Positions 8,623 through 12,206 are shown, counted from the stretch's first letter. The stretch is DNA of 64,000 nt from an uncultured Arcobacteraceae bacterium (GCA_964022095.1 CAXHZO010000001.1:32001-96000), one strand, 5' to 3'. Made by a program: numbers and translations. Notes: a model not told the origin generated them from the letters alone.

Positions 8623-10077
8623 CTAAGAAGAACAACTTAATTTCATATTTGCGTATTTTATAGGAGTTGGATTTGCATAGTTTTCAAAATTGCTATGCTC
8701 ATCAAATGGATTTTGAGCAATTTTCAATAGATCATTTACAAGTGAATAATCTCCATCATGAGCTTTTTCAATGGCTTCTTGAATCATATAGTTTTTTAGT
8801 ATATATTTTGGATTTACTTTTTTCATAATTTCATATCTTGATTCAAAACCACTACTTTGTTCTTCACAAACTTTTTTATAGGCTTCAAACCATTTTTTAA
8901 TAGGCTCTTGAAAAACTGCTATATCTAAAATTGTATTTAAATCATCAAATGACTTTATGAAAGTTAATCTATAAAAAAATACATTATAATCCATTCTTGA
9001 AGTTTCTAAGGCTCCTAGTAATTCAAGTATTAATTGAAGATTTGAGTCTGAACTTTTATTTGCATTTAATCCTAGTCTTTTATTCATTAAGTTTAAATAT
9101 ACATTTTGATGTTGAGATAAAAATGTCTGCATATAACTTGCTAATTTTTCACCATCACATATTTTACTTAGACAATCCGCTAAAACCATTAAGTTCCATC
9201 TTGCAACATATGGTTGATTGTTGTATGAGTATCTTCCTTCATGGTCTGTATGATTACAAATAGCATTTTTTTCAAAATAATCCATAAATGCATAAGGTCC
9301 ATAATCTATCGTAAGTCCTGCCATTGAAAAATTATCAGTATTCATAACTCCGTGTTGAAAACCATAAGCTTGCCATAAAGCCAAAAGTTCAGCTGTTTTA
9401 TCAACTAGTGAATAAAACATTTTTTCAACTTTATTTTCTACTTCAATTAAGTGTGGATAAGATTGATTAATCACATAATTAGCTAGTTGTTTTAGATTTT
9501 CTTCTTTATTTTTAGTTCTAGCAAAAAACTCAAAAGTACCAATTCTTATCCAAGAAGGACTCATTCGCATGACAATTGCACATGACTCTTGATTCCACTG
9601 TCTGTGTGCATAAGTCTCTGAATCAATTATTCCTAAAGCTCTAGTAGTAGGAATTCCTAAGTGATGCATAGCTTCACCCATAAGATACTCTCTAATACTG
9701 GACCTCAACACTGCCCTGCCATCACCTTGTCTTGAATATTTTGTAAGTCCTGAGCCTTTTGTTTGTAAGTGCCAACTGTTTATACTTCCAAGGTTTATTG
9801 CTCTTCCATCACCAAGTTGTGGTACAAAGTATCCAAACTGATGACCTGCGTAAACCATTGAATATGGCTTACTTCCCTTTAGAATTTTTGTTCCATTTAT
9901 AAAATCAATAAACTCTTGTGTTTCGCAAACTTCATAATCAAGTCCAATTAAATCACACGCTTCTTTATTATAAGAAACAAGTTTTGGATTTAAAAGAGGT
10001 GTTGCATCTAGTTTTTGATATAAACTTTCATCAAATTCAAAGTAATCTACTTCAAGTTTTAGTTCATCTAATTTCAT
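8623..10077 (-). CDS. selO: Protein adenylyltransferase SelO (YdiU)
   Basis: YAGHQFG, LGDGRA, KGSG.T.YSR.GDGRAVLRSSIRE, HGVMNTDN, IDYGP and C-terminal CSS; start reassigned to ATG 10077 (MKLDEL). Confidence 0.95.
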   Translation of the reverse strand: MKLDELKLEVDYFEFDESLYQKLDATPLLNPKLVSYNKEACDLIGLDYEVCETQEFIDFINGTKILKGSKPYSMVYAGHQFGYFVPQLGDGRAINLGSINSWHLQTKGSGLTKYSRQGDGRAVLRSSIREYLMGEAMHHLGIPTTRALGIIDSETYAHRQWNQESCAIVMRMSPSWIRIGTFEFFARTKNKEENLKQLANYVINQSYPHLIEVENKVEKMFYSLVDKTAELLALWQAYGFQHGVMNTDNFSMAGLTIDYGPYAFMDYFEKNAICNHTDHEGRYSYNNQPYVARWNLMVLADCLSKICDGEKLASYMQTFLSQHQNVYLNLMNKRLGLNANKSSDSNLQLILELLGALETSRMDYNVFFYRLTFIKSFDDLNTILDIAVFQEPIKKWFEAYKKVCEEQSSGFESRYEIMKKVNPKYILKNYMIQEAIEKAHDGDYSLVNDLLKIAQNPFDEHSNFENYANPTPIKYANMKLSCSS

Positions 10078-10169
10078 ATTAATTTTCTCTTTTTTCATAA
10101 TTATTCGTATATATGAAATTACTTTATCAAAAAAAAACATAATATAGGATAAAAAATATCCTATTTAAC

Positions 10170-10736: not shown

Positions 10737-11438
10737 TTAAGACATAATTTCATCAATAGTAATATAATCACCTACTCTTCCAGTCATTTGTTCTACATCT
10801 GTATTTACAGGAAGTGTTTTTTTACCTGGTTTCCATCCTGCTGGACAAACTTCACCTGTTTTCTCTGCATGTTGCCATGCTCTTACTTGTCTAATAAACT
10901 CATGAACATTTCTTCCAACCATTGGTGCTTGTACTTCTTGTGCTACAACAGTTCCTTCTGGATTAATTAAAAATCTACCTCTAAGTGCAATCCCTTCTTC
11001 TTCGATCATAACACCAAATGCTCTACTTACATCACCTTTTGGGTCTGCACCAATTGTTAATTGTAAACCGTCTAATAATGGTTCAGTTTCAACAAATCTT
11101 TTATGAGAAAACTTAGTATCTGTTGATACAGCCAAAATTTCTACTCCAAGTTCATCAAATTCTGATTTCATTGCATTCATAGCTGCAATTTCAGTTGGAC
11201 AAACAAAAGTAAAATCTGCAGGATAAAAACAAACTACACTCCACTTTCCTTCATAATCTTCACTTGATACTGTTTGGTAATGACCTGTTTTTGCATTATA
11301 TGCATCCATTTTAAACTCTGGGGCTTTTCTTAAAACTAAACTTGAACTCATTTTTTCTTCCTTTTTTTTCTCTATATTTTCATTATTTATATTATTTTCA
11401 TTTTCTTCGATTGGTTTTGAACCTGTATCACAAGCCAT
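10737..11438 (-). CDS. ahpC: 2-Cys peroxiredoxin (AhpC/Prx1 family)
   Basis: FYPADFTFVCPTE peroxidatic and GEVCPAGW resolving motifs; start set at ATG 11438 (AAGGAG SD); second SD-ATG at 11351. Confidence 0.9.
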   Translation of the reverse strand: MACDTGSKPIEENENNINNENIEKKKEEKMSSSLVLRKAPEFKMDAYNAKTGHYQTVSSEDYEGKWSVVCFYPADFTFVCPTEIAAMNAMKSEFDELGVEILAVSTDTKFSHKRFVETEPLLDGLQLTIGADPKGDVSRAFGVMIEEEGIALRGRFLINPEGTVVAQEVQAPMVGRNVHEFIRQVRAWQHAEKTGEVCPAGWKPGKKTLPVNTDVEQMTGRVGDYITIDEIMS

Positions 11439-11453
11439 AATATTCTCCTTTTC

Positions 11454-11476
11454 CAAAGGATAATAATTATCCTTTG
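11454..11476. promoter_or_regulatory. Fur/PerR-type operator upstream of ahpC
   Basis: Perfect 11-1-11 palindrome CAAAGGATAAT-A-ATTATCCTTTG with a GATAAT-N-ATTATC core. Confidence 0.65.
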
Positions 11477-11626
11477 ATAAAAATATTATAATACTTATAT
11501 TCTTTACTATAGCTTAAATTATAAATTTTTATTATAAAAATATAATAAGTTTTACTTATACTACTTTCTTTACAAACTCTAAACAAAAAACAAATAAAAT
11601 ATTCCTACAAAAACAAAGGAATAAAA

Positions 11627-11992
11627 ATGAAAAAACTACTATTCATTTTGCTATTTCTTACTTCATCAGTTTTTGCATTTGAAGATTTAACAGATGCAAC
11701 TTTTGATAAAAAAATAGCAAATAAAAAAGTAATAGTAGATTTCTATTCAGTATATTGAGGTTCTTGTAAGATTCTAGGTAAGAATTTAACAAACTTTAGC
11801 ACAAGTACCAAGCCAGCTGATGTAGAAATCTATAAGGTAGAGATATCTGATCAAAAAGCAATTGCAGCTAGATTTAATGCCTTTGCAGTGCCTATGTTAG
11901 TTTATTTTAAAAATGGCAAAGAAGTTGCTAGGGAAATTGGTGTTAGAAGTGTTAAACAACTAGAAGAAAATGTAAACAAATATTTAAAATAA
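11627..11992 (+). CDS. Exported thioredoxin-family selenoprotein (UxxC), 121 aa; not in the ORF track
   Basis: AAGGA SD; ATG 11627; MKKLLFILLFLTSSVFA-FEDLTDATFDKKIANKKVIVDFYSVY-U(TGA 11756-11758)-GSCKILGKNL...AARFNAFAVPMLVYFKNGKEVAREIG...KYLK-TAA; the thioredoxin fold continues in frame across the TGA. Confidence 0.88.
11759..11792 (+). promoter_or_regulatory. Bacterial SECIS-like hairpin
   Basis: Stem UUGUAAGAUUCU (11764-75) / AGAAUUUAACAA (11781-92), 11 of 12 paired, loop AGGUA starting after a 17-nt spacer from the UGA. Confidence 0.75.
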
Positions 11993-12013
11993 AAGAGTCA
12001 TCTCTTTTATTTT
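11986..12013. terminator. Bidirectional terminator after the seleno-thioredoxin
   Basis: AAAATAAAAGAG-tcat-CTCTTTTATTTT. Confidence 0.65.
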
Positions 12014-12206
12014 AAAACTCATTACCATCAATACTATCATATGAGTAACTACTAATTACTCCATCTTCAACACTATATGAAATCTCAATTGGCCTACAAC
12101 AAACTTCACAATCATCTACTAAAGTTGTGTGTTCATAAACTCCTGTATCAATTAAAACTGAAATTGCTTGCAGACAGTATGGACATGTGATATTTAACTC
12201 TTCCAT
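12012..12206 (-). CDS. CPXCG-motif cysteine-rich protein
   Basis: CPYC...DDCEVCCRPI signature. Confidence 0.85.
   Translation of the reverse strand: MEELNITCPYCLQAISVLIDTGVYEHTTLVDDCEVCCRPIEISYSVEDGVISSYSYDSIDGNEF

Follow-up and report, generated by a model that had tools for sequence, protein, structure and literature searches.

A predicted exported selenocysteine thioredoxin of an Arcobacteraceae bacterium and its relation to a thioredoxin encoded beside dsbD

The window analyzed here, a 64,000-nucleotide stretch from an uncultured Arcobacteraceae bacterium (GCA_964022095.1, CAXHZO010000001.1:32001-96000), carries a candidate gene for a selenocysteine (Sec)-containing thioredoxin, the features of which are collected in Table 1. 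An ATG led by a Shine-Dalgarno sequence opens a frame of 121 codons which is interrupted by a single TGA at codon 44; the coordinates and the frame, proposed in an earlier note on this DNA, proved correct in every respect. The note also held that the gene had been missed by open reading frame (ORF) calling, and a listing under genetic code table 11 indeed stops at 43 aa, yielding only the ORF 11627-11758. With TGA translated as Sec (U), the active-site stretch reads VIVDFYSVY-U-GSC-K, and the stretch containing the cis-proline, AVPMLVYFKNGKEV, follows downstream in the same frame. The flanking genes are located on the minus strand and encode an AhpC-type peroxiredoxin on the 5' side and a small CPXCG zinc-ribbon protein on the 3' side, while genes for hemerythrin and SelO are found further 5'.

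We found that the TGA codon is shared by many relatives of the window gene. When 61 related genomes were searched in six frames, 28 matches were obtained, of which 12 contain exactly one TGA, and a second search, covering all 184 genomes of the taxonomic family (E ≤ 1e-20, rows counted by hand), gave 127 matches, including 34 with one TGA encoded in 31 genomes and distributed over 8 of the 22 genera. The protein identity of these homologs to the window copy amounts to 45–58%, and in all 34 the TGA falls in one and the same alignment column, which excludes its origin by chance. In another 25 homologs Cys is aligned with this codon, which in close homologs is TGA or else TGT/TGC, as had been anticipated. 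Among the 34 TGA-bearing genes the UGSC motif is the most frequent (13), followed by UYAC (6), UPAC (5), UGAC and USAC (3 each), and UFAC, UPSC, UEAC and USSC (1 each). The residue preceding U is W in 24 cases, Y in 7, T in 2 and G in 1, so the replacement of the motif Trp by Tyr pointed out in the earlier note is true of the window gene, yet represents a minority state among its relatives. Median pairwise dN/dS equals 0.40 past the TGA and 0.31 for the preceding mature portion, both values being rough with synonymous sites near saturation. A selA gene was detected in 30 of the 31 TGA-bearing genomes versus 108 of 184 overall, a descriptive comparison between kin genomes that are not independent. 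None of the 24 other families of the order gave a match at E ≤ 1e-15, and the subfamily was found in one bacterial family only.

These data bear on the possibility that the gene is a pseudogene, in which a nonsense mutation leaves a 43-residue leader peptide, or nothing, to be made. Such an explanation would agree with the short table 11 ORF and with the 68-aa C-terminal fragments that stand for 3 of the 16 homologs in public calls (Table 1). Yet, it is opposed by the recurrence of the TGA in a single column across 34 genes, 31 genomes and eight genera at the above level of divergence, by the dN/dS downstream of the codon, and by the co-occurrence of the TGA with a covarying hairpin and with selA, all of which make a pseudogene very improbable.

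The genes required for decoding of UGA as Sec, i.e., selA, selB, selC and selD, were named as a check in the earlier note and were all found in the host genome (G000; completeness 99.99%). SelA is recognized with 473 bits, and the winged-helix domain of SelB resides within a 615-aa frame just downstream of selA. The tRNA-Sec gene adjoins selA (G000:C10:47620-47711, plus strand; locus L001, 1500-1594) and is assigned by ARAGORN as tRNA-SeC(tca), with the anticodon TCA; its Rfam score of 44.9 bits is below the gathering threshold of 47, so that a scan at that threshold would miss it. The selD gene is located at G000:C10:68099-69016 on the minus strand (locus L011). We observed that the product of selD is a selenoprotein as well: the gene contains one in-frame TGA, in the stretch KAAG-U-AAKLGPGDL (motif GUAAK), and a short hairpin, UUAGG...CUUAA, 9 nt past this TGA. 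The host genome also encodes RF2 (504.5 bits), and TGA terminates 3 of the 32 long ORFs in the window; therefore, TGA is an ordinary stop elsewhere in the genome and not a Trp codon.

The latter is of importance for an alternative in which the TGA stands for Trp (genetic code 4) or results from an assembly error, leaving W or C at position 44. Public annotation lends the Trp variant some support, as the 16 public homologs comprise 10 full-length proteins with W at the site (e.g., YWGSC, WWGAC), in addition to the 3 fragments of 68 residues and 3 CPPC proteins. The W-at-site calls suggest that short AT-rich contigs had been translated with code 4 during gene calling. Besides the presence of RF2 and of TGA-ended ORFs, this variant is contradicted by the fact that W would remove the catalytic nucleophile retained by every Cys homolog. 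As for an error, the window stretch occurs in many public runs, and the codon is unchanged in independent assemblies: a 630-nt DNA contig of run X7 (11458-12087) and a 215-nt contig of run X6 (11597-11811) show zero differences. This settles in favor of the TGA the concern, voiced in the earlier note, that it could be a sequencing error. A 174-nt contig from the metatranscriptome library X18 (11629-11802) also spans the TGA, with two differences elsewhere. Only a minor portion of the stretch is present in the RNA runs X17 and X18 (shares 0.10 and 0.09, respectively), and the X17 contig over the TGA, which extends 21 letters past it, was not counted as bridging. We consider misreading as Trp and assembly error together hardly credible.

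A candidate Sec insertion sequence (SECIS) follows the UGA. In an alignment of 34 Sec-gene regions (A2; 30 of them distinct, with 210 cells scored over seven pairs), a 7-bp stem begins 10 nt past the TGA and encloses a 5-nt loop, the second base of which, G31, is invariant (34/34). Pairing reaches 94.8% of the 210 cells and includes 32 compensatory cells in three pairs (G-C/A-U, U-A/C-G, and U-A/C-G), whereas in the control with the 3' arm slid by 1–3 columns, 22.9–69% of the cells are paired and no more than three are compensatory. None of 500 column shuffles matched the observed pairing or covariation. The hairpin is thus conserved in orthologs and supported by compensatory changes, a property on which the earlier note had made its reading depend. 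The lower pairs 19-45, 20-44, and 21-43 are formed in 10–11 of 12 sequences without covariation, and the upper 7-bp stem is the sole part conserved in relatives. In the window gene, the local fold of the upper hairpin has an energy of −3.7 kcal/mol (z −2.49), while the minimum free energy (MFE) structure of 11756-11800 consists of 7+3+7 pairs that start at the UGA (−10.2 kcal/mol, z −2.29, 7 of 200 shuffles as good). Of the 12-bp stem with an AGGUA loop after a 17-nt spacer described previously, the loop and the 17-nt distance from the UGA stand, and the stem was only roughly right. We determined that at least one G-C pair is present in the stem of all 34 Sec genes (median local MFE −3.5 kcal/mol), in contrast to 22 of the 25 Cys genes, which have none (median 0.0), and that the loop is AGGUA or AGGUG in 26 of the 34 Sec genes. 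Stem strength and loop set the Sec genes apart from the Cys genes. A gathering-threshold Rfam scan of the window detected one tRNA only and no match to the bacterial SECIS. On the basis of the comparative data, codon 44 is very probably read as Sec, and that the gene is a real selenoprotein gene is, in our opinion, highly likely.

In homologs with a CPPC motif (L070, L075, L076, and others) we noticed a weak hairpin composed exclusively of A/U pairs, with the loop AGCAA, within the 20 nt that follow the CxxC codons, i.e., at the site of the SECIS in Sec genes. Such a structure may merely reflect AT-rich codon usage, and it might have facilitated the emergence of Sec decoding.

The read-through product matches the Pfam Thioredoxin family (PF00085) over residues 20–117 (E 3.7e-19; 69.1 bits with a cut-off of 23.5), and HMMER alignments to protein disulfide isomerase (PDI) and thioredoxin chains of the PDB place U44 opposite the first Cys of CGHC motifs. 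The claim that the TGA takes the place of the first Cys of the thioredoxin CxxC is supported by the Pfam match as well as by alignments to the Cys homologs. Positions C44(U), C47, K70, and P89 are invariant in an alignment of 37 homologs (A3). In turn, the score for the TrxA equivalog model of NCBIfam (TIGR01068) is 77.9 bits, below the 96.8 cut-off; this score, the YUGSC motif and the presence of a leader classify the product, at the sequence level, as a thioredoxin-family member distinct from TrxA. None of the NCBIfam selenoprotein models matched it. AlphaFold, run with the homolog alignment, returned a confident model (pLDDT 91.3, pTM 0.82) with the thioredoxin order of secondary-structure elements and a long helix (residues 45–60) right after residue 44. 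The best PDB matches of this model in Foldseek are classical thioredoxins (TM 0.92–0.93), among them the Staphylococcus aureus thioredoxin (TM 0.93, rmsd 1.3 Å), while by sequence the best PDB matches are PDI-family domains (TXNDC5, 1.5e-21, and PDIA4).

Residues 1–20 are left unstructured by AlphaFold, with a pLDDT of 56–69 versus at least 95 for the remainder. All 37 aligned homologs possess a leader that consists of MKK (or similar), a hydrophobic run and FA-FE; that of the window protein contains neither a lipobox Cys nor a twin arginine. The leader pattern recognized in the earlier note, MKK-hydrophobic-FA/FE, is thus kept throughout the alignment, and we infer that the product is likely to be exported by the Sec secretion pathway and cleaved after VFA.

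An indication of function comes from a paralog in the same genome. The host encodes a CPPC thioredoxin (P0002; G000:C4:112038-112382), 45% identical to the window protein, directly upstream of a gene for a 588-aa DsbD; in this pair (G000:C4:112038-114155; loci L015 and L019) the stop codon of the first gene directly abuts the start of the second. Likewise, dsbD is found directly downstream of the CPPC paralog in 20 of 20 CPPC loci, with rhodanese-like genes often located upstream. Among the 12 Sec loci available with 1.5-kb flanks (the window gene and 11 others), dsbD lies just downstream of the Sec gene in L028 of genome G016. In G193, which belongs to the same genus (g16), dsbD starts around 80 nt past the Sec gene, and neither G016 nor G193 contains another family member at E ≤ 1e-20; the Sec form occupies the dsbD-operon slot in this genus. 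In four further genomes (G137, G131, G027, and G150), no thioredoxin gene is present in the 1.5 kb upstream of dsbD and the Sec form is the sole family member at the same threshold. A divergent rhodanese-like ORF is visible by eye upstream of dsbD in these four, its identity being confirmed by Pfam in the L028 homolog only. Overall, 16 of the 31 genomes encode Sec form(s) only and 15 encode both kinds, some of the assemblies being incomplete.

We therefore propose, with a rough probability of 0.8, that the gene encodes the 121-residue precursor of an exported Sec-thioredoxin. The protein would act as a DsbD-fed reductase and thus be the selenium-based counterpart of the CPPC thioredoxin that is encoded beside dsbD in this bacterial family. 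According to this proposal, SelB in complex with Sec-tRNA(Sec) would dock onto the 7-bp hairpin with its loop G 10 nt past the UGA, so that Sec is inserted and translation does not stop. The N-terminal leader would direct the chain to the Sec translocon and be cut after VFA, so that the mature thioredoxin, about 104 residues long and with U-G-S-C as its active site, would reside in the periplasm. Judging from the gene linkage in relatives, the selenolate would attack disulfides or sulfenic acids on envelope proteins, and the resulting selenenylsulfide with Cys47 would then be reduced by the membrane electron carrier DsbD. That the product is a client of DsbD is probable on account of this linkage, at about even odds. 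More speculative is the notion that in part of the bacterial family the reducing pathway of the periplasm is based on selenium, with the Sec-thioredoxin as a direct DsbD client; we regard it as possible but doubtful. If true, thiol repair in the envelope would depend on the selenium supply, and DsbD would reduce a selenenylsulfide in vivo, an activity which to our knowledge has been shown for no DsbD.

The product could also be a true exported Sec-thioredoxin with a task other than that of a general DsbD-fed reductase, either as a thiol oxidase or isomerase of the PDI type or as a specialist in sulfur, selenium or metalloid metabolism, which could, for example, reactivate Sox carrier proteins or partner the rhodaneses near dsbD. 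The PDI-family domains that head the sequence matches in the PDB are in line with this, as is the residue pair between the active-site positions, which is free in Sec forms and fixed as PP in the dsbD-linked paralog. A specialist role would suit the rhodanese genes beside trx-dsbD loci (by Pfam for L028, by eye for the others) and has a parallel in SoxW/SoxV, a periplasmic thioredoxin with a CcdA-type carrier in sulfur oxidation, as the title of a work cited in PMC2147049 has it. Nevertheless, the Sec form takes the slot upstream of dsbD in G016 and G193, and its being the sole family member in 16 of 31 genomes fits the replacement of the CPPC enzyme. Against an oxidase in particular, a selenenylsulfide is less oxidizing than a disulfide, and the host already has DsbB-like and DsbA-like genes, which lie side by side in its genome. 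For the same reason we rejected an oxidase standing in for absent DsbA/DsbB, a candidate considered along with a passage of a review in which the Arcobacter genomes analyzed are without classical DsbA and DsbB (PMC4460558). Altogether, a role of this kind seems unlikely, though less so than a pseudogene or a misread codon, and the DsbD-fed reductase is retained as the preferred explanation.

Several observations weigh against the proposed selenoprotein or its role. The fold energy of the window gene is unremarkable in its AT-rich context (z −0.16 on 81 nt and −2.3 on 45 nt); single-sequence folding energy, uninformative on 81 nt, was discarded as a SECIS test, and the hairpin evidence is therefore comparative rather than thermodynamic. 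Moreover, in the 25 Cys homologs these cells are likewise paired to 72.6%, with pairing at all seven positions in 4 homologs, so that part of the pairing must come from the coding of K-[VI]-L-x-K-N-L in AT-rich codons. One genome, G201, has a TGA form without a selA match (its assembly is 86% complete), and the kin genomes are not independent, which inflates the support drawn from the shuffles and from co-occurrence. Contigs from the RNA libraries may contain DNA and show the presence of the sequence, rather than the level of transcription or read-through. With regard to function, the window Sec gene is unlinked to dsbD, which is seen in 1 of the 12 flanked Sec loci, and the residues between U and C vary (GS, YA, PA, GA, SA, FA, PS, EA, and SS). 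This variation, together with the PDI-type sequence matches, makes a role beyond plain reduction possible.

Exchange between Sec and Cys appears to have occurred repeatedly in the family. In a maximum-likelihood tree of 58 of the 59 proteins (L046, longer and divergent, was omitted), a single clade of 20 rows unites the CPPC proteins (SH-aLRT 96); the Sec proteins fall outside it, with four non-CPPC Cys forms sitting among them. The Sec/Cys label changes four times on the tree, and at least three changes are forced by well-supported branches. One Cys form, L069 (WCPSC; G198:C25), is placed inside the Sec clade, and the 48 bases from the codon onwards are those of the Sec gene L027 (G007) save for TGT in place of TGA; it looks like a very recent Sec-to-Cys conversion in which the hairpin is still kept. 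Another, L045 (GCSAC), is sister to L066 (GUSAC). At L049 (G197:C1:911144-912524), we noted a Sec form (WUGSC) and a long-branch Cys paralog (WCDIC) in tandem on the same strand.

Sec-thioredoxins as such are catalogued. Table 1 of PMC13188914 lists the family (PF00085, UxxC) with the Treponema denticola enzyme as a verified example, Table 2 of PMC2398784 gives 321 genes for "Trx-like 1" (COG0526), abundant in ocean metagenomes, in the GOS survey, and a listing from bacterial genomes dates from 2006 (PMC1794560). The window subfamily agrees with these in belonging to PF00085, in having Sec at the first and Cys at the fourth position of CxxC, in its widespread Cys homologs, and in a SECIS just 3' of the UGA. 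It differs from them by its conserved leader and probably periplasmic location, by the lack of WCGPC, and in having been found in a single bacterial family only. With the CPPC thioredoxin linked to dsbD it has in common the length, the leader (FGFE/FAFE), the fold elements and, in genus g16, the dsbD slot; in contrast, the CPPC protein has Cys, and the PP dipeptide in 20 of 20 cases, lacks G-C pairs in the region of the hairpin, and forms a separate clade. Two of the CPPC homologs bear the source label Aliarcobacter.

The SECIS elements of Epsilonproteobacteria are described by Cravedi et al. (2015; PMC4607533) as sharing a 5/6-bp hairpin a few nucleotides past the UGA, with an invariant G in the loop. 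The short upper hairpin found here, its invariant loop G and the covariation in its upper stem conform to this description, whereas its seven pairs and the prevalence of AGGUA/AGGUG loops do not. Among the genomes of that study there is a single annotated Sec-thioredoxin, which may or may not belong to the window subfamily. A "UGSC-containing protein" family of ocean metagenomes, for which Table 2 of PMC2398784 lists no Pfam or COG domain, resembles the window protein in the U-G-S-C motif and in a presumed thioredoxin-like fold. Unlike it, the window protein is a PF00085 member, and UGSC occurs in 13 of the 34 relatives as one of nine motifs; the metagenomic family appears, from its description, to be a different one. 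In the literature on Arcobacter selenoproteins and selenocysteine we came across no description of an exported, dsbD-related subfamily, although the supplement of PMC4607533 may list one, and in excerpts of the A. butzleri genome paper a Sec formate dehydrogenase is the one Sec protein mentioned.

As Sec-thioredoxins and exported thioredoxin-fold selenoproteins have already been catalogued (PMC13188914, PMC2398784), the present case is useful rather than surprising to a specialist, and its main value lies in the correction of annotation and in a Sec/Cys system amenable to testing. Public homologs are mis-called in 13 of 16 cases, with either W at the active site or a fragment, and a model based on the 34 genes together with their hairpin would set the annotation right in no fewer than 31 genomes. 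The two paralogs, with the same leader and fold, their repeated switches, the recent conversion with the hairpin kept and a Cys lineage in which a weak A/U hairpin already occupies the appropriate place, constitute a compact natural Sec-versus-Cys experiment. A connection of selenium with the DsbD-dependent reduction of the cell envelope is also indicated, and can be tested.

Table 1. Elements of the predicted Sec-thioredoxin gene in window coordinates, with public calls of its homologs
Feature	Position or identifier	Strand	Basis or remark
Sec-thioredoxin coding sequence, complete (predicted)	11627..11992	+	121 codons + TAA; translation with TGA=U, PF00085, AlphaFold
Start codon ATG	11627-11629	+	direct reading
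Shine-Dalgarno AAGGA	11616..11620	+	6 nt upstream of ATG; direct reading
Predicted Sec-type signal peptide MKKLLFILLFLTSSVFA, codons 1-17	11627..11677	+	putative cut before FED
UGA codon 44, putative selenocysteine, attacking residue of U-G-S-C	11756..11758	+	column shared by 34 TGA homologs
Resolving Cys, TGT codon 47	11765..11767	+	C47 column invariant (alignment A3)
Putative SECIS, upper hairpin	11769..11787	+	arms 11769-11775/11781-11787; loop AGGUA 11776-11780; invariant G 11777
Extended stem-loop, in window gene only	11756..11798	+	lower stems begin at UGA; MFE fold
cis-Proline, codon 89	11891..11893	+	P89 column invariant (A3)
Stop codon TAA	11990-11992	+	direct reading
A/U-rich 12-bp hairpin over TAA	11986..12013	.	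fold energy versus shuffles
Promoter-like TTGATA-16 nt-TATATT	11474..11501	+	consensus scan, 10/12 matches
Public W-at-site calls	P0003-P0012, P0035		proteins
Public fragments starting past the TGA	P0033, P0034, P0037		proteins

As regards the boundaries of the transcription unit, the promoter-like site upstream of the gene is weak evidence, as the region contains 8 such sites versus 6.5 expected from shuffles. The terminator which the earlier note placed at the TAA was confirmed in substance: a perfect 12-bp hairpin overlaps the stop codon (−10.6 kcal/mol, z −7.54, 0 of 200 shuffles as good). A consensus terminator scan, which demands three G-C pairs, listed none here, the hairpin being A/U-rich. 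It is probably a two-way terminator common to the Sec gene and the convergent CPXCG gene (12012-12206, minus strand).

The gene neighborhood is variable. In the window, SelO, a protein adenylyltransferase, is encoded 1.5 kb away (8623-10140, minus strand), with hemerythrin and ahpC in between. The redox cluster of the earlier note is local, AhpC and hemerythrin being neighbors of the Sec gene in the host genome only. By tblastn within the 1.5-kb flanks, AhpC was found beside none of the 11 other Sec loci, while SelO is a divergent neighbor in four (L021, L022, L025, and L027); on these counts the cluster was dismissed as a general functional clue. The recurrent SelO neighbor may represent no more than an inherited gene order. 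A Pfam scan of ORFs at 9 of the 11 loci (all except L021 and L022) revealed a different context in each, with GreA, TruD, aldo-keto reductase, flavodoxin and glycosyltransferase among the neighbors.

The window AhpC looks like a cytoplasmic 2-Cys peroxiredoxin. Its ORF runs some 34 residues upstream of the usual MSSSLVLRK start (region 11351-11456, minus strand), and an ATG at 11438, preceded by AAGGAG, would add the low-complexity stretch MACDTGSKPIEENENN to the protein. This AAGGAG ribosome-binding site is overlapped by a 33-bp near-palindrome, TTTTCCAAAGGATAAT A ATTATCCTTTGATAAA, at 11449-11481, which may be an operator or a 5'-UTR structure of the ahpC/Sec-thioredoxin intergenic region.

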